This document shows, in pieces, positions 3,554-37,176 of a DNA stretch of 64,000 nucleotides. The stretch is from the NCBI RefSeq assembly GCF_016026235.1, contig NZ_CP065613.1; one strand, written 5' to 3'. How positions within the stretch are numbered: the stretch's first letter is position 1; each line of letters begins with the position of its first letter. Position numbers and translations under genes: made by a program. Source of the stretch: Escherichia coli. GTDB taxonomy: Bacteria > Pseudomonadota > Gammaproteobacteria > Enterobacterales > Enterobacteriaceae. The notes beneath the pieces were generated by a model, which saw only the letters and a list, made by a program, of their open reading frames with translations, had not been told where the DNA came from and ran no database searches.

Positions 3554-4117
3554 ATGAACCTTGACGACAAATCGCTGTTTCTTGACGCCATGGAAGATGT
3601 CCAGCCGCTGAAACGAGCTACAGATGTCCACTGGCATCCAACGCGTAACCAACGTGCGCCGCAGCGTATCGACACGCTGCAGCTTGATAATTTCCTCACC
3701 ACCGGATTTCTCGACATCATCCCGCTAAGTCAGCCGCTGGAGTTTCGGCGGGAAGGGTTGCAACATGGGGTGCTGGATAAGCTGCGCAGTGGTAAATATC
3801 CGCAACAGGCGAGCCTGAATCTTTTGCGCCAGCCGGTGGAAGAGTGCCGCAAAATGGTGTTCAGTTTCATTCAACAAGCCCTGGCGGATGGTTTGCGTAA
3901 TGTGCTGATTATTCATGGTAAAGGGCGGGAAGATAAATCGCATGCCAATATTGTCCGCAGCTATGTGGCGCGCTGGCTGACCGAATTTGATGATGTTCAG
4001 GCATATTGCACCGCGCTACCGCATCATGGCGGCAGCGGGGCGTGTTACGTCGCACTACGTAAAACGGCGCAGGCGAAGCAAGAAAACTGGGAGCGCCACG
4101 CTAAGCGCAGTCGTTGA
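3554..4117 (+). CDS. smrA: Smr-domain DNA endonuclease SmrA
   Basis: 187-aa ORF with good SD (aggagg); recognised as E. coli SmrA/YdaL. Confidence 0.85.
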   Translation: MNLDDKSLFLDAMEDVQPLKRATDVHWHPTRNQRAPQRIDTLQLDNFLTTGFLDIIPLSQPLEFRREGLQHGVLDKLRSGKYPQQASLNLLRQPVEECRKMVFSFIQQALADGLRNVLIIHGKGREDKSHANIVRSYVARWLTEFDDVQAYCTALPHHGGSGACYVALRKTAQAKQENWERHAKRSR

Positions 4118-4137
4118 TCTCGAGACGCATCCGCGGC

Positions 4138-5370
4138 TTATGCCGCCAGCACGCGGTTGCGTCCATCATTTTTCGCCCGATACAAAGCATCATCAACGCG
4201 TTTAAACAGTTCATCGATGCTTTCATTTCCTTCGTGATGCGCCACACCAATGCTGACGGTAAAGCGTGGTAAGCCCGAAATACTCACTTTTGCCACGCTT
4301 ACGCGGATAGTTTCAGCCAGCGAAAGCGCGGTATCCAGTGGGGTTCTTGGTAGCAATAAGACAAACTCTTCGCCTCCCCAACGAAACACCAAATCGCCTT
4401 TGCGAGCGCAACTTTCGAGGGTGCGGGCGAGGGCGCATAACACCTCATCACCTTTAGAATGCCCATAGAGATCGTTAATGTGTTTAAAACGATCGGTGTC
4501 GATGAGCAACAAGCTGTAATCCTGAGCGATGGCGAGATGCTGCATTTGGCCTGGCTCGGTAATGTGATAAAACTGTCGCCGATTCAGTAATCCGGTCATC
4601 GCGTCATGGTGAGCAGCATGTTCCAGCTGCTCCTCCAGCCGTTTTTGCTCAGTAATATCATGCACAATACATAACATGAGCTTGTCGCCATAAATTTCAA
4701 TCGGTCCGGCATAGGTCTGCACATGACGAGTAGATCCATCCGCCAGTTTATGAACAAAATTCAAAGGTTTATGACCGCCGGGTAAATGCGAAATTTCATG
4801 CATGATAGGCATGACGCGACGCCCGAGCATATTTATTTCCCAGGTATGTTTCTGGCACATCGTTTCATGGTTATAACCATAGAAATTGAGCGCGGCGAGG
4901 TTAGCATCGACGATTTGTCCATCTCGTGACGGGTCAATCAACAACATTGGTGCAGAGTTAGTCAGAAAAAAGCGCGCATAAAAACCTTGTTTTTTGCGCT
5001 GATAATTTGCCGAGCGACTGGCTTTTAAACCCAGCGTTGCCGGCGCTTCGATACCTTCGAAAATAATCACCGGTTCTGTTTCTGTCAGCTCTCGCAAAAC
5101 AAGCCGACAGCTTAATGCTGTTTCCTCTTCTTTACGCTGAACAGTGAGGATTTCGATAATATCGTGTTGGTTTTGCAGATCGGAGAGGTATTTCGGCAGT
5201 TCTTTTTGTGAGGAGACGGAATAGGGACCGGTTCGTAGCTGACTAAACGTGAGGTCTTGCATCAACAGTCGCGCCGCGCTATTGGCATAAATTAACTGTT
5301 CCTCAAAGGGCGAAACGATCCAGACAGGACTGGTGAGTAAGTCCAGGGTATTGAAGTTGTGCGTAATCAT
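4138..5370 (-). CDS. dgcM: Diguanylate cyclase DgcM (PAS-GGDEF)
   Basis: GGEEF motif (RWGGEEF) and PAS-like N-terminus; ORF extends to 5430 but the start is probably the Met at 5370 (410 aa). Confidence 0.8.
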   Translation of the reverse strand: MITHNFNTLDLLTSPVWIVSPFEEQLIYANSAARLLMQDLTFSQLRTGPYSVSSQKELPKYLSDLQNQHDIIEILTVQRKEEETALSCRLVLRELTETEPVIIFEGIEAPATLGLKASRSANYQRKKQGFYARFFLTNSAPMLLIDPSRDGQIVDANLAALNFYGYNHETMCQKHTWEINMLGRRVMPIMHEISHLPGGHKPLNFVHKLADGSTRHVQTYAGPIEIYGDKLMLCIVHDITEQKRLEEQLEHAAHHDAMTGLLNRRQFYHITEPGQMQHLAIAQDYSLLLIDTDRFKHINDLYGHSKGDEVLCALARTLESCARKGDLVFRWGGEEFVLLLPRTPLDTALSLAETIRVSVAKVSISGLPRFTVSIGVAHHEGNESIDELFKRVDDALYRAKNDGRNRVLAA

Positions 5371-8587: not shown

Positions 8588-9523
8588 TTATTTCACTTCA
8601 ACCACATTCAGCCGTAACTCATCCAACTGATTTTCATCTTCTTCTGGCTGCCAGCCCGCCGGTTGTAGTGGGATCTCTTCGCGATCAAACGCCAGATCAC
8701 CCCCGTTAACCACTTCAGAACCGTGGGTGATGCCTTTGAAATCGAACAGGTTGGTATCGCACAGATGCGACGGCACCACATTCTGCATCGCGCTGAACAT
8801 CGTCTCGATACGCCCTGGATAACGTTTATCCCAGTCCCGCAACATGTCAGCAATCACCTGACGTTGCAGGTTAGGCTGTGAACCGCACAGGTTGCACGGA
8901 ATAATCGGGAACGCTTTTGCATCGGCAAATCGCTGAATATCTTTCTCGCGGCAGTAGGCCAGCGGACGAATAACGATATGTTTGCCATCATCGCTCATCA
9001 GTTTCGGAGGCATACCTTTCATCTTGCCGCCGTAGAACATATTTAAGAACAACGTTTGCAGGATATCGTCACGATGGTGGCCCAACGCGATCTTCGTCGC
9101 CCCCAGTTCCGTTGCGGTGCGATAAAGGATACCGCGACGTAGCCGAGAACACAGTGAGCAAGTGGTTTTGCCCTCTGGAATCTTCTCTTTCACGATACCG
9201 TAAGTGTTCTCTTCAACAATCTTGTACTCAACGCCCAGCTTTTCAAGATACTCGGGCAGAACGTGTTCCGGGAAGCCCGGTTGCTTTTGATCGAGGTTAA
9301 CAGCCACCAGCGAAAAATTGATTGGCGCGCTTTGCTGCAAATTGCGCAGAATCTCCAGCATGGTATAGCTGTCTTTACCCCCGGAGAGGCAAACCATGAT
9401 GCGATCGCCTTCTTCAATCATATTGAAGTCAGCAATGGCTTCGCCCACGTTACGACGCAGACGTTTTTGTAATTTGTTCAGATTGTATTGTTCTTTCTTT
9501 GTAATTTGTTGATTTTCTTGCAT
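8588..9523 (-). CDS. ttcA: tRNA 2-thiocytidine synthase TtcA; its 5' end is supplied by the prophage junction
   Basis: 311 aa with SGGKDS PP-loop and Cys motifs; start [17 protein letters not shown] overlaps the att core. Confidence 0.9.
9474..9499. other. Prophage att core, left copy (TTGTTCAGATTGTATTGTTCTTTCTT)
   Basis: 26-bp sequence identical to 57929..57954; sits in the first codons of ttcA next to the integrase gene. Confidence 0.65.
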
Positions 9524-9574
9524 TATTTCAGTTCTCTGGTACTAAATGGGGCAAATTGGGGGCAAACTTTGCAA

Positions 9575-11126: not shown

Positions 11127-11315
11127 TCACGAGGACTGAAGTTTCTCGCAATTAAAATTTATCAGTTTTACTTTCTGCTCTCTGGAAACGCCTGCTTCTT
11201 TTTCCCCTGAGAGCATTTTTTCGCATTCTGATTTCGTTAGTTTTGTCTTTGAGTATCTTGTCCAGCTGGCAGGAGAACCACCTTCCTTTTCAATAGTGGC
11301 TGTAATTTTATACAT
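11127..11315 (-). CDS. Hypothetical phage protein (62 aa)
   Basis: ATG preceded by GGAGGTG; no recognisable motif. Confidence 0.4.
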   Translation of the reverse strand: MYKITATIEKEGGSPASWTRYSKTKLTKSECEKMLSGEKEAGVSREQKVKLINFNCEKLQSS

Positions 11316-11354
11316 GAACACCTCCATTAATATTTTCCCAAAATGCACTTGGTT

Positions 11355-27576: not shown

Positions 27577-27866
27577 TGGTGGATTTACGTAAAGCGGCGC
27601 GGGGGCAGATGTGCACCGTCAGAATTCCTGGCTACTGCAATCACGATCCGGAAACGTCTGTGCTGGCGCATTACCGACTGGCGGGAACGTGCGGAACAGC
27701 GACAAAACCACACGATATGCAGGCGGCGATTGCCTGTAGCTCATGCCACGATTTAATCGACGGGCGGGTAAAAACAAGCGATTACACCAAAGAAGAATTA
27801 CGCCTGATACATGCAGAAGGTGTTTTTCGCACGCAAGAAATCTGGAGAAAGGAAGGTTATTTATGA
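27576..27866 (+). CDS. Hypothetical nin-region protein (96 aa), resembles DUF1364/YbcO
   Basis: Cys/His-rich (CTVRIPGYCNHD…CSSCHD). Confidence 0.45.
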   Translation: MVDLRKAARGQMCTVRIPGYCNHDPETSVLAHYRLAGTCGTATKPHDMQAAIACSSCHDLIDGRVKTSDYTKEELRLIHAEGVFRTQEIWRKEGYL

Positions 27867-28417
27867 TTTACCCAACAAATACAGGCAAAAGCGGGGAACA
27901 CCTTCGTCTCACCACGCTGGAAAGTGTCTGGATTCAGGGAAAACTGCGCATGTGGGGGCGCTGGTCGTATATTGGCGGCGGTAAGACGGGGAATATGTTC
28001 AACCAGTTGTTGGCCTCTAAAAAGCTGACAAAAACGGCAATTAACGAGGCGCTCCGGAGGATGAAAAAAGCAGGTCTGGACAAACCTGAACTTGAGGCTT
28101 TTTTGCGGGATATGATCAACGGCAAGCAAAAAAGCTGGCTGGTGCATTGTACTGACGCAGAGGCGTTATGCATTGATCGGGTGATTAGTGAAGTGCTGGC
28201 AGAACACCCAGGATTGATTTGTATCCTCCGGCAACGATATGAAGGGAGTGGGATGACTAAGCGAAAAATGGCTGAATTGCTGAATGATTCACACCCTGAG
28301 TGGTGTTATCGGACGTGTTGCAGTCGGGTTGATGTATGGCTAAATCTTGCTGAATATATGCTCTATCTACCGATGCGTGATGCATTCTCTTCCGGGGATC
28401 TAAAAACCGTCTGTTGA
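27863..28417 (+). CDS. Putative late-gene antiterminator (Q-like)
   Basis: 184 aa from ATG at 27863 with SD AGGAAGG; position upstream of pR'-like promoter, tRNAs and lysis genes; Cys-rich C-terminus. Confidence 0.45.
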   Translation: MIYPTNTGKSGEHLRLTTLESVWIQGKLRMWGRWSYIGGGKTGNMFNQLLASKKLTKTAINEALRRMKKAGLDKPELEAFLRDMINGKQKSWLVHCTDAEALCIDRVISEVLAEHPGLICILRQRYEGSGMTKRKMAELLNDSHPEWCYRTCCSRVDVWLNLAEYMLYLPMRDAFSSGDLKTVC

Positions 28418-28689
28418 CTCAATCTGTTATCCGGGGCTATATTCCTCACGCGCCAGCAAAATCTGGCGTCGGGATTGGCGTCCCGGATGTTTACGGAGCG
28501 ATATGAGACGCGCCCGCGTCTTTTTTCATATCGTTTGCACAGTCTCATTCGCGATTTATGGCGGGCTGTGTGGGGGAGCCGAAAGGCTCGCCGGTTTCCG
28601 TACCCGGTTACGCCAACCCTGCACAGTTCGCCACCAGTTCGATTGGCGTCGTCGGTGGCGATAATTTCCAAATGTACGGAGTTATCGTT

Positions 28690-29247
28690 ATGACCACTCA
28701 AATCTCTGTTGAAACTCTCTCCCCGATCACCCATAACCAGATTCCTGTTATTACCACCGAACTTTTGGCGCAGCTTTACGGCACTGAGCCGGTGCGTATT
28801 CGCCAGAATCATCATGAGAACAAAGTACGCTTCGTTGAAGGGAAACACTTTTTCAAAGTTGTTGGTAATGACCTTAAAGAATTGCGGGTAGCTTTAAACT
28901 ACTCACAAAATCCCATCTCTCCCAAAGCCCGCTCCCTCATCCTCTGGACAGAACGAGGCGCAGCACGCCACGCCAAAATGCTCGAAACCGATCAGGCGTG
29001 GGATGTGTTCGAAAAACTGGAAGACTGCTATTTCAGTCAAAAGGATCCGTCAACGCCAGTTTCATGCCAGAAAAGTTACGACACGCGAGTTCTCTGTTAT
29101 CAGAGAGGCGGTGTCACTGTTTCCACAATTCAGTTACGGGATGATGATATTGTTATTTCCCTTGAGTCATGGCTGGAACTGGCGAGAGCCAATGGTTGGT
29201 TTGTTGTTCGCAGAGATAAACTGGTGGAAAGGTTGATGCAGCTTTAA
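28690..29247 (+). CDS. KilA-N/Bro-N-type antirepressor-like protein
   Basis: MTTQISVETLSPITHNQIPVITTELLAQLYGTEPVRIRQNHHENKVRFVEGKHFF… resembles phage antirepressor N-terminal domains. Confidence 0.5.
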   Translation: MTTQISVETLSPITHNQIPVITTELLAQLYGTEPVRIRQNHHENKVRFVEGKHFFKVVGNDLKELRVALNYSQNPISPKARSLILWTERGAARHAKMLETDQAWDVFEKLEDCYFSQKDPSTPVSCQKSYDTRVLCYQRGGVTVSTIQLRDDDIVISLESWLELARANGWFVVRRDKLVERLMQL

Positions 29248-29455: not shown

Positions 29456-29532
29456 GGCCCTTTAGCTCAGTTGGTCAGAGCGAGCGACTCATAATCGCCA
29501 GGTCGCTGGTTCAAGTCCAGCAAGGGCCACCA
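29456..29532 (+). tRNA. tRNA with anticodon CAU (Ile2/Met-like, ileZ-type)
   Basis: Cloverleaf by eye: acceptor GGCCCTT/AAGGGCC, anticodon loop CTCATAA, T-arm GCTGGTTCAAGTCCAGC, 3' CCA encoded. Confidence 0.8.
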
Positions 29533-29533
29533 A

Positions 29534-29610
29534 CCACCACTAGCTCATCCGGATAGAGCATCAACCTTCTAAGTTGACGGTGCGAGGTTCGAGTCCTCGG
29601 TGGTGGGCCA
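29534..29610 (+). tRNA. tRNA-Arg (anticodon UCU) with atypical 5' C-start acceptor stem
   Basis: Acceptor CCACCAC/GTGGTGG, anticodon loop CTTCTAA, T-arm CGAGGTTCGAGTCCTCG, CCA encoded. Confidence 0.65.
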
Positions 29611-29612
29611 GC

Positions 29613-29688
<76 letters not shown>

Positions 29689-29691
29689 TAT

Positions 29692-29766
<75 letters not shown>

Positions 29767-30058: not shown

Positions 30059-30274
30059 ATGAAATCCATGGACAAAATTTCAACGGGCATTGCCTACGGC
30101 ACCTCCGCCGGCAGTGCCGGCTACTGGTTTTTGCAGTGGTTGGATCAGGTCAGTCCATCACAGTGGGCTGCGATTGGTGTGCTGGGAAGTCTGCTTCTGG
30201 GGCTTCTGACTTATCTGACGAATCTGTATTTCAAAATAAGAGAAGACAAGCGTAAGGCTGCACGGGGAGAGTAA
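30059..30274 (+). CDS. Class II holin / pinholin (phage 21 S-like)
   Basis: 71 aa; [28 protein letters not shown]… two TM helices and charged C-terminus; SD GGAGGTGAGG. Confidence 0.85.
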
Positions 30275-30277
30275 ATA

Positions 30278-30907
30278 ATGAAGCATGAAGAAATGAATCA
30301 GCGATTCAATCACCTGGAAAATGAAATCACTGAGCTTAATAAAAAATTGTCGGCGTTGGTGAGTTCTGAAGATGAAAACAAACGCCGCGATGAGCATTAT
30401 GCGGCGATTTACGATTACTGCCACAAAGTCGCTCACGAGACTTTTATGAAGTTTTTGCAGGAAAAGTTTTTACCGGCCGCATTGTCAGAAAAAGAGGCGG
30501 CTTACCTGCGGCCTGAGTACGTCATTACGGTTAACAGTGCCGGAGAGGAAGAGCATAAAAGTGATTTTATTGCGTCTGCACCGGATAAAGACCAGGAACC
30601 CCGTCGGCCTTTCAGGGTTTCCTGTGAAGAGGGTGAGTTCGTCGTTTATGAGAACGGAAAACCTGTCCGGGCATCGCATCATCACTGCCTGAAAATTATT
30701 AATCTCGCTATCAGATGCCTGAAAGACGAAAACACCAGAGTTATGAAACGCATTGGCCGTTGCATGGGGTATTTGCAGGTGGCGGCAGAGATTGAAGCAC
30801 TTGCCAGTGGTGCAGACATGGATGCTGCGGTGCGGGAGGCTCTTCTTCGTGATTTCAATACTCCCCCTTTAAGAAAGAGCCTGATGACTGGATCCAGCCG
30901 GGGCTGA
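30278..30907 (+). CDS. Unknown 209-aa protein inserted between holin and endolysin
   Basis: ATG 3 nt after the holin stop, SD GGGGAGAG; N-terminal coiled-coil-like segment, several Cys/His; no family recognised. Confidence 0.5.
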   Translation: MKHEEMNQRFNHLENEITELNKKLSALVSSEDENKRRDEHYAAIYDYCHKVAHETFMKFLQEKFLPAALSEKEAAYLRPEYVITVNSAGEEEHKSDFIASAPDKDQEPRRPFRVSCEEGEFVVYENGKPVRASHHHCLKIINLAIRCLKDENTRVMKRIGRCMGYLQVAAEIEALASGADMDAAVREALLRDFNTPPLRKSLMTGSSRG

Positions 30908-30972: not shown

Positions 30973-31506
30973 ATGAGCGCAAAAATCAAATACGGCCTGT
31001 CGGCTGCTGTTCTGGCGCTGATTGCCGCAGGCGCGTCTGCTCCCCAGATACTTGACCAGTTTCTGAACGAAAAAGAGGGTAATCACACAACGGCATACCG
31101 TGATGGTTCTGGCATATGGACCATCTGTCGTGGTGCCACAATGGTGGATGGTAAGCCTGTCATACCGGGAATGAAGCTGTCGAAGGAAAAATGTGACCAG
31201 GTTAACGCTATTGAACGTGATAAGGCGCTGGCATGGGTGGAGCGCAATATTAAAGTACCTCTGACCGAACCACAAAAAGCGGGTATAGCGTCATTTTGCC
31301 CCTATAACATTGGCCCCGGTAAGTGTTTCCCGTCGACGTTTTATAAGCGGCTGAATGCCGGTGATCGTAAGGGCGCATGCGAGGCGATTCGCTGGTGGAT
31401 AAAAGATGTTGGGCGCGATTGCCGCATACGTTCAAATAACTGCTATGGACAGGTTATTCGTCGTGACCAGGAAAGCGCATTAGCCTGTTGGGGGATAGAT
31501 CAATGA
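30973..31506 (+). CDS. SAR endolysin (T4-lysozyme-like muramidase)
   Basis: 177 aa; N-terminal hydrophobic signal-anchor-release segment ([16 protein letters not shown]) followed by E…D…T catalytic triad region. Confidence 0.8.
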
Positions 31507-31970
31507 GCAGAGTCACCGCGATTATCTCCGCTCTGGTTATCTGCATCATCGTCTGCCTGTCATGGGCTGTTAATCATTACCGTGATAACGCCATTACCTA
31601 CAAAGAGCAGCGCGACAAAAACGCAAGAGAACTGAAGCTGGCGAACGCAACCATTACTGACATGCAGCAGCGCCAGCGTTCTGTTGATGCACTCGATGCT
31701 AAATACACGAAGGAGTTAGCTGATGCGAAAGCTGAAAATGATGCTCTTCGGCGCAAGCTTGATAATGGTGGTCGGGTGCTCGTCAAAGGAAAATGCCCTG
31801 TGCCAGCCTCAGCCAAAACCTCCAGCGCCTCCGGCATGGGCAATGATGCCACCGTCGAACTCTCTTCAGTTGCTGGACGAAACGTTCTCGGTATCCGGGA
31901 CGGAATTATCCGCGACCAAACAGCACTGAGAACGCTTCAGGAATACATCAATACGCAATGCCTGAATTAA
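31503..31970 (+). CDS. Rz i-spanin
   Basis: ATGA overlap with the endolysin stop; N-terminal TM helix and coiled-coil periplasmic domain. Confidence 0.7.
31723..31929 (+). CDS. Rz1 o-spanin lipoprotein, embedded in Rz in the +1 frame
   Basis: Signal peptide with lipobox (MVVGCSS) and proline-rich mature part. Confidence 0.65.
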
Positions 31971-32011
31971 TCCCTCTGTATCAAAAACGAACTCAATTTG
32001 TTGGATAGTGA

Positions 32012-32323
32012 ATGAAAATTTATATTGCCGGGCCAATGACGGGATATGAGAACTTTAATCGTGACGCCTTTAATAAAGAGGCAGATCGTTTGTCACGACA
32101 TGGTCACTCTGTCTTGAATCCAGCCACTTTGCCTAATGGTCTGACACAACGTGAATACATGGATATTTGCTTTGCAATGCTTCGTTGTGCGGATGCTATT
32201 TTGATGCTTCCTGGCTGGAAAGCGTCTGCTGGAGCAACTGCTGAGTATCATTACGCATACAAGATGGAGATGCCGGTATTCACTACGCTGAATTACCCGC
32301 CAGCTTGTTCCTCTGCAGTATAA
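32012..32323 (+). CDS. Small protein with a nucleoside 2-deoxyribosyltransferase-like N-terminus (DUF4406-like)
   Basis: 103 aa beginning MKIYIAGPMTGYENFN…VLNPATLP…; sits between the lysis and packaging modules. Confidence 0.45.
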   Translation: MKIYIAGPMTGYENFNRDAFNKEADRLSRHGHSVLNPATLPNGLTQREYMDICFAMLRCADAILMLPGWKASAGATAEYHYAYKMEMPVFTTLNYPPACSSAV

Positions 32324-32869
32324 AAATCTCTTTGTTTCTCGTGTGCGATCGTGGTCGCTCGCTAAATTCCGCGCTGCATCGTCGCCGTATTTCCGCATTA
32401 ACTATGACCGTAGCCCGACGGGGAACTCCTTCTGCGCGAGTGTGCGGGAATAATCAAAAACGATGCACACCGGGTTTTTACCGCGTTTATGGTTCGCGGG
32501 TTTGTCCCTCATGCTCGCCAGTCCTGTGCGGGGGTGGAAGAAACAGGACACTTACACTGATTCTTGTGGGTACGATGCTATTCCTTTCTGGATTATCCCG
32601 ATGTCATTCATGCAGGGCGCTGTATCAGACGTTCGTCATGGCTGTCAGGCTGACGGGTCCTCCCGGTGGGGTGGCCTGCCACGGGGCGGGAGCGGCGCGG
32701 AAAAAGGCTAGTTTTTGAAATTTCATTCGTCATCACCACTACTGTAATGTATTGATATTACAGTGGTTTTATTTTTGTGCTGTCGGTTTTGATTGTTTTT
32801 TGTTCATCACTAACACCGTTTGCCTAAAGTTGTTCGCAAGATGCATGTTTAAAACATTCTGGAGCGGGT

Positions 32870-33363
32870 ATGGATCGAGAGTTAAAAAATCTGACGCTGA
32901 ATATCAGTCAACTGGCGGCACTGTCAGGTGTACATCGCCAGACTGCTGCGGCAAGGCTGCAAAATCTACCCGTTGCAGGGGGCATGAAAGCAACCTCAAG
33001 CTTTATCGGGTGGTTGATATTGTGTCGGCATTTCTGGCATTACCACCGCCGGTTGCAGAAGGCGAAATGGACGCGCATGAGCGCAAAGCCTGGTATCAGT
33101 CTGAACGTGAGCGTCTTAAGTTCGAACAGGAAACGGCACAACTCATTCCGGCCAGTGATGTCAGACGGGAGTTTGCCATCTGGGCAAAAGCGGTCGTGCA
33201 GGTGCTGGAGACATTACCGGATATTCTTGAACGTGACTGCGGTCTGCAGCCTGCCGCTGTGAGCCGTGTTCAGTCCATTATTGATGATCTGCGCGATCAG
33301 ATAGCCCTGCGGGTGACTGAAGCAGGTGCGGATGATGAGGAGGAATTACAGCAGGAGGAGTAA
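32870..33363 (+). CDS. Terminase small subunit, reading frame broken once
   Basis: N-terminal HTH-like segment (MDRELKNLTLNISQLAALSGVHRQTAAARL) in one frame, C-terminal part (…NLKLYRVVDIV…EEELQQEE) in the -1 frame; bridged by adding one G to the G5 run at 32978..32982. Confidence 0.6.
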
Positions 33364-35443
33364 TGCTGAATCAGGAAACCGCAAAGGCAGCACGAACCGA
33401 TTCAGGTTATATCCTTCGCGCACCAAGACGAATGCGGGTTGCTGATGCCGTTGCTCAGTATATGCGGGTGCCCATGGGGCAGGGAACTCAGTCCCGTGGG
33501 ATCCGCTGGTGGCACCGTATGTTATTGAGCCGATGAACTGCCTGGCCTCGCGTGAATACGACGCAGTGATATTTGTTGGCCCGGCACGAACCGGCAAGAC
33601 TATCGGCCTGATTGACGGCTGGGTGATTTACAACGTGATTTGCGATCCTGCTGATATGCTGATCATTCAGATGACGGAGGAAAAAGCCCGCGAACACTCC
33701 AAAAAACGACTCGCCAGAACGTTTCGCGTCAGCCCGGAAGTGGTCAGTCGCCTGAGTCCGAACAAAAATGACAACAACGTTTATGACAGAACATTCCTTG
33801 CTGGCAACTACCTGAAAATCGGCTGGCCGTCAGTCAATATCATGTCCTCATCAGATTATAAATGCGTCGCGCTGACGGATTATGACCGTTTTCCGGAAGA
33901 TATTGATGGTGAGGGGGATGCTTTCTCTCTTGCCTCAAAACGTACCACAACATTTATGTCCAGTGGTATGACGCTGGTGGAGAGTTCCCCCGGCAGGGAT
34001 GTGAAGGATGTGAAATGGCGACGGACTTCACCGCATGAGGCTCCACCAACCACGGGGATACTGTCGCTCTATAACCGTGGCGATCGCCGTCGCTGGTACT
34101 GGCCCTGTCCACACTGTGGTGAGTATTTTCAGCCCTGCGGCGATGTGGTTGCTGGTTTCCGTGATATTGCCGATCCCGTGCTGGCAAGTGAGGCGGCTTA
34201 TATTCAGTGTCCTTCCTGTTCAGGACGGATTATGCCTGAACAAAAACGTGAGCTGAACGGACGTGGGGTCTGGTTGCGGGATGGTGAATCCATCAATGCG
34301 GATGGCAGTCGTTATGGTGATCCCAGGCGTTCACGTATTGCGTCATTCTGGATGGAGGGTCCGGCAGCTGCTTACCAGACACTCTCGCAACTCGTTTACA
34401 AACTGCTTACTGCAGAACAGGAATACGAGACAACCGGAAGTGAAGAAACACTCAGGGCGGTTATCAACACCGACTGGGGATTACCTTATCTTCCCCGCGC
34501 CAGCATGGAGCAACGAAAAAGTGAACTGCTTGAGCAGCGGGCAGAGCCTGTTCCTCCCCGCTGCGTGCCGGATGGTGTTAATTTCCTGGCGGCGACAGTG
34601 GATGTGCAGGCGGGACGTCATCGCCGTTTTGTGGTTCAGGTAACGGGTTATGGTTGCCGTGGCGAACGCTGGATTATTGATCGTTACAACATCACGCAGT
34701 CATTGCGTTGTGACAACAACGGAGAAAGCCTGCGAATTGATCCTGCTGGTTATCCTGAGGACTGGGATGTCCTGCTGACGGATGTTTTTCATAAAAGCTG
34801 GCCGTTGGCCTCCGATCCTTCTCAACAAATGCGACTGATGGCAATGGCGGTGGACTCCGGCGGTGAAGACGGGGTCACTGATAATGCCTATAAATTCTGG
34901 CGTCGTTGCCGTCGTGATGGCCTTGGTAAACGTATTTACCTGTTTAAGGGCGACAGCATCCGGCGCGCAAAACTGATCACCCGTACATTCCCTGATAACA
35001 CCGGACGAACGGGCCGACGGGCGCAGGCCGCAGGTGATGTGCCGCTCTGGCTTCTTCAGACGGATGCCCTGAAAGACCGGGTGAATAACGCGTTATGGCG
35101 TGACTCGCCAGGTCCCGGCTATGTGCATTTCCCTGACTGGCTGGGGAGCTGGTTTTACGACGAACTGACGTATGAAGAGCGGAGCAGTGACGGGAAATGG
35201 AGTAAGCCGGGTCGAGGTGCCAACGAAGCTTTTGACCTGATGGTGTATGCCGAGGCTCTGGTCATTCTGCATGGTTACGAGAAAATTCAGTGGCCGGATG
35301 CGCCGGAATGGGCATGCAGGGAAACCTGGCTGGAGCGTGTCAGGGACGATGCCGGACTGTCAGCCTCGCCGGAGCCGGTATCCGTGTCCGTTAAAAAAAG
35401 AAACGAAAAAAAGTGGTGCCTGATGAAGAAAACCCATGGGTGA
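33363..35443 (+). CDS. Terminase large subunit (lambda gpA-like)
   Basis: Walker A VGPARTGKT and CPHCG zinc-finger-like motif; TAATG coupling with SD GAGGAG at 33363, but the frame then needs +1 C near 33493..33495; alternative in-frame ATG at 33446. Confidence 0.75.
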
Positions 35444-35672
35444 CTTCCGGAGGATGGTTGTGAACCAGAATGATATTGAAGCCATGATCCATCGTTATAT
35501 CAATGCGGAAATGGCAGTGCTGGACGGAAAGTCCATTACTTTTAATGGTCAGCAGATGACCATGGAAAACTTATCCGAGATCCGACAGGGGCGGCAGGAG
35601 TGGGAACGTCGCCTTGCGACTCTGGCTGCGCGGCGACGGGGGACGCCGGGCTATAAACTGGCGAGGTTCTGA
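35436..35672 (+). CDS. Head-tail joining protein (gpW-like)
   Basis: 78 aa with C-terminal RRRGTPGY resembling lambda W; sits between terminase and portal. Confidence 0.45.
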   Translation: MGDFRRMVVNQNDIEAMIHRYINAEMAVLDGKSITFNGQQMTMENLSEIRQGRQEWERRLATLAARRRGTPGYKLARF

Positions 35673-37176
35673 TGGCAATTCTTGATGATGTGATTGGTGT
35701 TTTTTCACCTGGCTGGAAAGCTGCGAGATTGCGCTCAAGGGCATTAATTCGTGCCTATGAGGCAGTGAAGCCTACTCGTACACATAAAGCCCGGCGGGAA
35801 AATCGTTCTGCCGACCAGCTCAGTAAGTACGGTGCAGTTTCCCTGCGGGAGCAGGCTCGTTTTCTGGACATCAATCATGATCTGGTAATCGGTGTTTTCG
35901 ACAAACTTGAGGAACGGGTGATTGGTGCAAAAGGGATCGTTGTCGAACCCCAGCCATTACTGAAGAACGGTGATATAGCCACAGAGCTGGCAATGATTAT
36001 CCGTCGCTTGTGGGTGGAATGGTCTGTCAGTCCGGATGTGACCGGGCAGTATACGCGCCCCATGCTCGAGCGTCTGCTGCTGCGTACCTGGTTACGTGAT
36101 GGTGAAGTGTTTGCCCAGCTGGTTCGTGGTGCCGGCGGCGGGCTGGTGCGGACTGCTGGCGTGCCTTTCTGGATCGAGGCAATGGAGCCGGATTTTGTGC
36201 CCATGCTCAGTGATGAATCTGTGGGGTTGAATCAGGGTGTTTTTCTGGATGACTGGGGCAGACCGAAAAAATACCTGGTTTATAAAAATCATCCGACTAC
36301 CGGGCGGCTGAGTGATACCAAAGAGATCGTTGCCGAAAATATGGTGCATCTGAAATTTACCCGTCGTCTGCATCAGACGCGTGGTACATCCATGTTGTCA
36401 GGTGTGCTGATGCGGATCAGTGCGCTTAAGGAATATGAAGATGCTGAGCTGACAGCGGCGCGTGTTGCTGCGGCTCTGGGGCTGTATATCCGTAAAGGAG
36501 ATGGGCAGGATTATGAAGACGCCACGATAAATAAAGATAATGACCGGGAACTGCATATCACCCCTGGCATTATTTATGACGATTTGCGCAAGGGGAAGAT
36601 ATTGGCATGGTCAAATCTGATCGGCCCAATCCTAACCTTGAAACTTTTCGTAACGGGCAGCTGCGTGCGGTGGCCGCAGGCAGTCGTATGAGTTTTTCCA
36701 GTGCGGCGCGCAATTACAACGGTACCTACAGCGCTCAGCGACAGGAGCTGGTCGAGTCCACTGACGGGTATCTGATCCTGCAGGACTGCTTTATTGGTGC
36801 TGTAACCCGTCCCGTGTACCGGACGTGGCTGAACATGGTGGTAGCAGCAGGTCTGCTGAAAATCCCGTCGGATGTGGATATGAAAACGTTGTGTAACGCA
36901 ACATATTCCGGTCCGGTCATGCCGTGGATTGATCCGGTTAAGGAGGCTGAGGCCTGGAAAATCCAGATTCGCGGTGGAGCGGCGACAGAATCAGACTGGG
37001 TGCGAGCAGGTGGGCGTAATCCGGATGATGTCAAACGTCGGCGCAAGGCTGAAATTGATGAAAACCGCAAGCTGGGTCTGATATTTGATACCGATCCGGC
37101 CAGTGATAAAGGAGGCAGCAGTGTCGCAACGAAACGACAGGAGCCGCAGCACACCGACGGCCAGTCCGAAGAATAA
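35672..37176 (+). CDS. Portal protein, reading frame broken once
   Basis: 339-aa N-terminal ORF and 189-aa C-terminal ORF in the -1 frame; adding one G to the G4 run at 36592..36595 joins them (…LRKGEDIGMVKSDRPNPN…). Confidence 0.75.

Follow-up and report, generated by a model that had tools for sequence, protein, structure and literature searches.

The 103-residue protein encoded just after the lysis genes of a lambdoid prophage in Escherichia coli is a minimal member, with a core of about 90 residues, of the N-deoxyribosyltransferase/DNPH1 superfamily, and it belongs to the phage-borne DUF4406 family. Its gene lies in a 64,000-nucleotide stretch of contig NZ_CP065613.1, which we refer to as the window and number from its first letter. 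The alignment of its conserved residues with those of other members of the superfamily suggests that the protein may be a minimal nucleoside 5'-monophosphate N-glycosidase that works on the nucleotide pool during lytic growth, with Glu78 carrying ribosyl- or deoxyribosyl-5-phosphate as a covalent intermediate. We give this proposal about an even chance of being correct.

The list of open reading frames (ORFs) places the ATG of the gene at 32012 and the end of its stop codon at 32323 on the plus strand, exactly where the original prediction had put it, and the product reads MKIYIAGPMTGYENFNRDAF...SSAV. The gene begins 41 nt past the stop codon of the Rz-like gene and is present as a single copy within the window, as determined by tblastn. 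In comparisons with relatives that are 79 to 85% identical in protein, pN was approximately 0.07 to 0.08 against saturated synonymous sites (pS of 0.65 to 0.9), and comparison with a 96% relative gave a dN/dS of 0.07. The DUF4406 gene is under purifying selection and is a genuine gene rather than a chance ORF. It is intact despite frame-disturbing indels in the nearby packaging genes.

The Pfam model for DUF4406 (PF14359) matched the protein at an E value of 4.2e-34 (117 bits) over positions 1 to 90 of the 91-position model. Two secondary Pfam matches were weak: Nuc_deoxyrib_tr (PF05014; E = 6.1e-4, 20.4 bits), which scored far below DUF4406, and DUF1937 (1.6e-3). PHROG 355, labeled "nucleoside 2-deoxyribosyltransferase," matched at 2.8e-45. 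None of the NCBIfam models matched the 103-aa protein, and neither did any entry in a single-sequence search of the PDB (phmmer, E ≤ 10). An AlphaFold2 model built from 88 homologues had a mean pLDDT of 95 and a pTM of 0.87 and contains four strands and four helices. When this model was compared with the PDB by Foldseek, the nucleoside 2-deoxyribosyltransferase (NDT) of Trypanosoma brucei (2a0k) ranked first (E = 1.4e-4), followed by bacterial NDTs, MilB, and DNPH1; the NDTs 6evs and 6qai were among the best matches, and PA1492 matched as well. The targets were 135 to 165 aa long, and the TM-score normalized to target length was about 0.5. All of the structural matches in AFDB50 were labeled either DUF4406 or "nucleoside 2-deoxyribosyltransferase." The assignment to DUF4406 with an NDT-like fold that had originally been proposed from the sequence was thus correct, as judged by the full-length Pfam match, the PHROG match, and a confident model that resembles NDTs, MilB, DNPH1, and PA1492.

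Proteins of the DUF4406 type are small, single-domain phage or prophage proteins of about 90 to 150 aa, and here a 103-aa protein is encoded in the late operon of a lambdoid prophage. On each feature compared, the protein is a member of DUF4406. It should not be filed as a PF05014 NDT or as DNPH1, because each of these assignments fails at least one defining feature. The gene has in fact already been annotated: identical DNA and protein are present in RefSeq (WP_000708309.1, "DUF4406 domain-containing protein"), and the family is known, large, and functionally uncharacterized. We found no functional study of, or biochemical data on, any DUF4406 protein in the searchable literature, in which mentions merely list the domain, and searches for literature on PF14359 and DUF1937 returned nothing. 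Pfam analysis of 46 longer relatives for domain fusions was uninformative, revealing DUF4406 plus sporadic helix-turn-helix, DUF551, or ClpX zinc-finger domains in single proteins.

The GenBank labels of DUF4406 genes in actinophages vary. Such genes, for example, Optimus gp161 (locus L008, positions 2474 to 2854) and Shambre1 gp62 (locus L009, positions 2492 to 2821), are named "MazG-like pyrophosphatase," "deoxycytidylate deaminase," "hydrolase," or "nucleoside deoxyribosyltransferase." These inconsistent labels are probably propagated misannotations. We considered and rejected the possibility that they mark "MazG" or "dCMP deaminase" fusions; the genes are mislabeled single-domain DUF4406 genes encoding about 110 to 127 aa.

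Conservation was counted in the alignment of 88 homologues. Five residues (G7, F20, Y49, S72, and G74) are invariant in all 88, and P8, G11, G31, N36, P37, P41, G43, I52, M56, L66, W69, A75, E78, and A82 occupy columns that are at least 90% conserved. The window protein retains every one of these residues and carries the complete DUF4406 motif set (YIAGPM[TS]G, NR, F, LNP, P-x-G, YM, and GW-x-x-S-x-GA-x-x-E). The N-terminal motif, which had been singled out as a hallmark of the family, is a genuine one: besides the invariant G7, the Y4 position is Tyr in 77 and Phe in 9 of the 88 sequences, P8 is kept in 80, M9 in 74, T10 (as Thr or Ser) in 84, and G11 in 83. E78 is kept in 87 of 88. The third residue of the "GWE" element in the Pfam motif is K70 here, which is unremarkable because its column is variable (Glu in 38, Gln in 17, Lys in 11, and Arg in 8 of 88). 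According to the DSSP string of the model, all of the invariant residues except F20 are in the β1-α1, β2-α2, and β3-α3 loops, which share one face of the fold along the sheet's C-terminal edge.

We then mapped these residues onto enzymes of known structure. When the PDB was searched with the profile of the 88 homologues, the NDTs of T. brucei (6e-5) and Leishmania mexicana (8e-3), BlsM (0.02), and PA1492 were recovered. E78 aligns with the conserved catalytic Glu of the two NDTs, which lies in the motif GTAFE(V/L)G, and with the corresponding Glu of BlsM and PA1492. Neither phmmer nor the family profile found DNPH1 in the PDB at E ≤ 10. The human DNPH1 sequence, verified against PDB chains, was aligned to the family profile with hhalign. 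The resulting alignment is weak on its own (E = 0.027) but agrees with the structural matches. The alignment pairs Y4 with Tyr24, G7 with Gly27, M9, T10, and G11 with Ile29, Arg30, and Gly31, S72 with Ser98, G74 with Gly100, and E78 with Glu104.

In DNPH1, Glu104 is the proposed nucleophile and is held by Tyr24, the 3'-hydroxyl is bound by Gly27 and Glu104, and the backbone NH groups of Ile29, Arg30, Gly31, and Gly100, together with the hydroxyl of Ser98, hold the 5'-phosphate (PMC10483697). By alignment, the Tyr-Glu pair of the DNPH1 type is present as Y4 and E78, and the 5'-phosphate site is present as M9/T10/G11, S72, and G74. The residue six positions before the Glu is Ser in DNPH1 and BlsM, both specific for 5'-phosphates, and in PA1492 and DUF4406, whereas it is Asp in the two aligned NDTs (D-C-G-T-A-F-E), which are specific for nucleosides. 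This Asp, equivalent to the sugar hydroxyl ligand Asp92 of the Lactobacillus leichmannii NDT, is absent from the homologues, in which S72 is invariant at that position. Two features of DNPH1 and the NDTs were not found. The general acid/base Asp80 has no conserved counterpart in the aligned region of the 88 homologues, and the nearby acidic residues are variable (E48 is Glu in 33, Gln in 25, and Asp in 13 of 88; D51 is Asp in 45 of 88). The C-terminal segment, through which the partner subunit contacts the base and the phosphate (Ser128' in DNPH1), is absent, the conserved core ending at about residue 91. From these alignments, the active-site core of the protein looks like that of DNPH1 and BlsM.

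The reaction that we infer from this mapping would begin with the binding of a ligand of the nucleoside 5'-monophosphate type at the C-terminal edge of the β-sheet. Its 5'-phosphate would be held by the backbone of the G7-P-M-T-G11 loop, by S72, and by G74, the last two being invariant. Y4 would position E78 for attack on C1' of the ribose or deoxyribose, which would expel the base and form a covalent (deoxy)ribosyl-5-phosphate-enzyme intermediate. This intermediate would be resolved by water, making the protein an N-glycosidase, or, less likely, by another base, making it a transferase. With the general-acid Asp and the base-contacting residues of the partner subunit missing, the base pocket would have to take another form, probably one made up of the family-specific residues F20, N36-P37, P41, G43, Y49, and W69. 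In the window phage, the gene would be expressed as the last of the Q-dependent late lysis operon, and in most relatives it would be expressed alongside replication genes. Because most relatives keep the company of replication genes and the gene lies in the late lysis operon here, a role in editing or sanitizing the nucleotide pool during lytic growth would be expected. The late-operon position in the window phage does not sit neatly with a replication-linked role and counts against this explanation.

Table 1. Features of the window surrounding the DUF4406 gene
Feature	Position in window	Strand	Evidence or note
Q-like antiterminator	27743–28417		PHROG match
Anti-repressor-like gene	28558–29247		PHROG match
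Four tRNAs	29456–29766	+	Anticodons CAT, TCT, TGT, TCC
Holin, first gene of the late-operon lysis cassette	30059–30274	+	phrog_20, phrog_9876
209-aa ORF without assigned function	30278–30907	+	phrog_1085, 3.9e-74
Endolysin	30973–31506	+	phrog_7, 1.3e-62
Rz-like i-spanin, last lysis gene, upstream neighbor	31488–31970	+	phrog_13, 7.7e-75
Rz1-like o-spanin, embedded in Rz	31723–31929	+	phrog_3198, 1.4e-25
Replaceable cassette with DUF4406 gene	31964–32370	+	ORF with flanks of about 48 nt (upstream) and 47 nt (downstream)
DUF4406 gene, 103 aa	32012–32323	+	Pfam 4.2e-34, PHROG 355
Conserved segment, cassette to terminase genes	32371–32844	+	95% identical to mEp460
Small ORF inside conserved segment	32463–32711		phrog_17397, label without function
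Small terminase subunit (TerS), downstream neighbor	32845–33363	+	81% to mEp460 TerS (tblastn); phrog_141 from residue 44 on

The original prediction had described the gene as following the spanins, and PHROG matches and tRNA calls bore this out (Table 1). The large terminase subunit gene comes after that for TerS. Scans of the region around the DUF4406 gene (31900 to 32900) revealed no Rfam matches and no repeats. Farther upstream, the four tRNAs lie in tandem just 5' of the holin gene in the late operon, and the one with the CAT anticodon is annotated by RefSeq as tRNA-Ile in an equivalent prophage. The 209-aa ORF sits between the holin and endolysin genes, and a related prophage has a counterpart annotated as a partial member of the YdfR family. 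Rfam models for c4-a1b1 targets (52 bits), isrK (75.6 bits), and C4 antisense RNA (77.6 bits) all exceeded their gathering scores at 28437 to 28638 on the plus strand, between the Q-like antiterminator and the anti-repressor-like ORF, with the C4 match overlapping the start of the latter. This region looks like the known P1/Gifsy-type module in which an anti-repressor is controlled by c4/isrK antisense RNA.

Relative to mEp460, the packaging genes of the window have gained or lost a single base in homopolymer runs (A or G) at 32884, 32978, 33476, and 38455. Two compensating 1-nt homopolymer indels leave residues ~14 to 45 of TerS out of frame, and homopolymer indels also split the large terminase gene (33363 to 33491 versus 33476 to 35443) and the protease/scaffold gene. 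The frame of the portal gene changes at about 36590 to 36660 (35672 to 36691 versus 36607 to 37176). Either the homopolymers were missequenced or the prophage is decaying. A gross frameshift in a Nu1-type gene was considered and rejected in favor of the TerS assignment in Table 1 with its two compensating indels. We likewise dropped the placement of a cos site at 32844, where the match to the mEp460 record ends, because that record simply begins at the TerS start codon.

Comparison with mEp460 defined a replaceable cassette around the DUF4406 gene. The mEp460 sequence aligns by blastn to 31400 to 31963 and to the conserved segment downstream but not to the interval between them. The flanking lysis and terminase DNA is 93 to 95% identical to that of mEp460, and the cassette is the sole difference in the compared stretch. 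At this junction mEp460 holds an unrelated segment of ~324 bp and lacks the DUF4406 gene. The GC content of the cassette is 43.7%, compared with about 50% in its flanks, and the GC3 of the gene is 39%, compared with 49 to 57% for its neighbors. The cassette thus shows the presence or absence between collinear phages and the atypical composition that characterize morons. A consensus scan, which can miss weak signals, predicted no sigma-70-type promoter or intrinsic terminator between Rz and the DUF4406 gene and, from Rz to TerS, nothing except a weak hairpin at 32738 to 32767, so that a promoter and terminator of its own, a further moron trait, were not found. Cotranscription with the late lysis operon is therefore the simplest reading. 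The claim that the gene occupies a post-lysis moron slot, as bor does in lambda, holds in part: the low GC content and the absence from mEp460 at the same junction agree with it, whereas the gene, unlike bor, shares its strand with the lysis genes and has no predicted promoter or terminator of its own. In composition and in presence or absence the cassette is of the moron type, but its strand is that of the late operon and it has no predicted signals of its own.

Just downstream of the cassette, a segment of ~180 bp (32371 to 32550) is present once in the window but twice, as a direct repeat, in the FDAARGOS_943 prophage, the plasmid pAH01-1, and phage PhiR46_1. The copies, at 9360 to 9539 and 11143 to 11322 in locus L003, flank about 1.6 kb with two to three hypothetical genes that are missing from the window. 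The single copy is consistent with deletion or insertion via recombination between the repeats.

The identical gene is present in 37 of 5,426 complete E. coli genomes. Its 40 places in E. coli genomes comprise 24 in chromosomes and 16 on "plasmids" of 36 to 62 kb. These replicons carry terminase, portal, lysis, RelE/ParE toxin-antitoxin, and DUF977/DUF4752 genes (e.g., NZ_CP055252.1, the 46.9-kb pAH01-1; locus L004) and are phage-plasmids. In pAH01-1, the junction between DUF977 and DUF4752, which is the site used by the gene in early operons (see below), is empty, and the DUF4406 gene follows Rz instead. Among phages, tblastn found relatives in 633 of 50,697 records, with 100% identity in Escherichia phages PhiR46_1 and YDC107_1. 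The proteins of phiKO2 (gp58), N15 (gp57), and PY54 are 84.7%, 83.5%, and 64% identical, respectively, and in all three phages the gene lies at the corresponding position, between the lysis genes and the packaging end. An exhaustive phmmer search recovered 10,851 cluster representatives at E ≤ 1e-3.

To survey genomic context, we used 80 viral loci found with 14 closer sequences; neighboring genes were grouped into clusters whose labels we verified against PHROGs. Where the protein is at least 79% identical to that of the window, the gene follows lysis genes in all 27 viral loci, and in 2 of these a NinG/Rap-type gene lies within 3.5 kb as well. Where it is 57 to 68% identical, 48 of 53 loci have it in the early right operon. 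These early-slot copies directly follow replication genes (DnaB, DnaC, O-like, or CII-like), typically between a Ren-like/DUF977 gene and DUF4752, and more distant members adjoin genes for single-stranded DNA-binding protein, primase, helicase, VRR_NUC, or RusA-type proteins. The window gene belongs to a late-slot subclade, typified by N15 gp57; elsewhere the family accompanies replication and recombination genes.

Several other readings of the protein can be weighed against N-glycosidase activity. The label of PHROG 355 and many GenBank records would make it a true NDT (EC 2.4.2.6) that swaps bases between free deoxynucleosides for salvage. The weak PF05014 match of 6e-4 and the rank of NDTs (2a0k, 6evs, and 6qai) as the best sequence and Foldseek matches point the same way, and there is a precedent in a phage PF05014 NDT with a dA preference that was recently assayed (bioRxiv 10.1101/2025.10.22.683976). 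We nevertheless find a true NDT rather improbable, since the invariant Ser six residues before the nucleophile is that of the phosphate-binding DNPH1 and BlsM rather than the Asp of the two aligned NDTs, the protein lacks the C-terminal part of NDTs and falls about 50 residues short of their length, and the database labels are inconsistent, with MazG, dCMP deaminase, and hydrolase among the names in actinophage records. It had also been suggested that the protein might sequester or modify nucleotide signals, which would make it a counterdefense factor acting as a sponge for, or cleaver of, an immune nucleotide signal or a defense-made nucleotide (cADPR isomers, other TIR products, NAD-derived molecules, or modified dNMPs). 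The accessory nature of the cassette and the kinship of its product's fold to TIR domains leave room for such a function. However, we found no positive evidence for it and think it unlikely. PADLOC-DB v2, which includes retron NDT-like effectors and TIR proteins, yielded 0 families at E ≤ 1, and literature searches linking NDTs with anti-defense or DNPH1 with phage defense found no functional work. We know of no sponge with an NDT-type fold, the conserved nucleophile-type Glu and the Tyr argue for catalysis over pure sequestration, and the commonest context of the family is among replication and recombination genes rather than in known anti-defense loci. The suggestion of signal sequestration or modification is thus unsupported. 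A broader version, in which DUF4406 proteins are widespread, unrecognized phage enzymes that cleave the N-glycosidic bond of an immune-signal, defense-generated, or modified nucleotide (of the NAD/ADPR or modified (d)NMP type), strikes us as similarly doubtful. If it were true, a minimal DNPH1/TIR-like active site would serve a counterdefense or pool-sanitizing function, and the post-lysis subfamily of the N15 gp57 type would act late in infection.

A substrate linked to DNA methylation is suggested by analogy with DNPH1, which acts on 5hm-dUMP, and MilB, which acts on hm-CMP; the protein would then hydrolyze methylated or 5-substituted (deoxy)nucleotides. In N15, gene 57 (locus L106, 3501 to 3833) overlaps by 20 nt the start of gene 58 (3814 to 4809), which encodes a Dcm-type DNA cytosine methyltransferase. 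A cytosine methyltransferase gene lies 15 to 95 nt downstream in 5 of 28 late-slot viral loci (L031, L033, L038, L039, and L046), and an N6-adenine methyltransferase gene lies 5' of the holin gene in 24 of the 28, counts that are not independent because the loci are closely related. A methylase is also three genes away in Pseudomonas phi297 and Klebsiella Kpn74, and an N-6 DNA methylase is listed beside DUF4406 in a Brachyspira prophage (PMC8845278). No homologue of these cytosine or adenine methyltransferases is present in the window, however, and none was found within 5 to 6 kb in early-slot relatives or in Vibrio and metagenomic examples, so that methyltransferase coupling is real in N15-like phages but was rejected as a general trait. 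We consider a methylation-linked role quite improbable. The least likely reading would be a moron expressed from the prophage for the benefit of the lysogen, through superinfection exclusion or as a toxic effector, as are bor and other genes of this slot. The cassette is low in GC and occupies a classic moron slot, and N15 has a putative terminator between its lysis genes and genes 56 to 58. Against this, no promoter or terminator is predicted around the window gene, which is on the late-operon strand; the product has no signal peptide or membrane segment and is modeled as a soluble α/β domain; and no PADLOC model matched. Such a role therefore seems very unlikely to us, and we retain N-glycosidase activity on nucleoside 5'-monophosphates as the preferred reading.

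As an identification, the finding is routine; it would not surprise a specialist and opens no long-standing question. What value remains lies in the DUF4406 family, which is very common in phages, has no assigned activity, and includes a member from a model phage, N15 gp57. The residue mapping suggests N-glycosidase assays on NMPs, dNMPs, and 5-substituted nucleotides as the first to perform, and the protein is a simple target for enzymology. If an activity were found, the annotation of thousands of phage genomes would be improved.

Compared with named systems, the protein shares parts of several. DNPH1/Rcl (2'-deoxynucleoside 5'-phosphate N-hydrolase; 5hm-dUMP hydrolase) has no significant sequence match to it, and the DUF4406 protein differs in lacking an equivalent of Asp80 and roughly 50 C-terminal residues, including the Ser128' region, and in being phage borne. 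MilB, BlsM, and BcmB, which are CMP and hydroxymethyl-CMP N-glycosidases, are about 160 to 190 aa long, function in antibiotic biosynthesis, and are about 20% identical. The NDTs of PF05014 (L. leichmannii, T. brucei, and L. mexicana) align with DUF4406 at the catalytic Glu and the N-terminal Y-x-A-G-P motif, whereas the DUF4406 protein has Ser in place of Asp six residues before the Glu and is shorter by one β-α unit. The sequence alignment with PA1492 (PDB 1T1J; Pfam DUF1937) covers only the C-terminal motif, and PA1492 adds no functional clue because it is likewise uncharacterized. TIR domains and ThsB, which are NAD-cleaving immune proteins, have a related fold but show 7 to 14% identity and no sequence-level relationship.

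At the level of the locus, lambda bor is comparable in being an accessory gene that lies past the spanins and ahead of the packaging end. Bor is a lipoprotein whose gene is on the opposite strand with its own promoter, whereas the DUF4406 product is a soluble α/β protein encoded on the late-operon strand with no predicted promoter. N15 offers the same gene in the same slot, but the window phage is an mEp460-like lambdoid phage, not an N15-like telomere phage, and is without the flanking methyltransferases. From the DUF4406 family itself, the window protein differs in nothing of substance, and it keeps all of the invariant and near-invariant residues.
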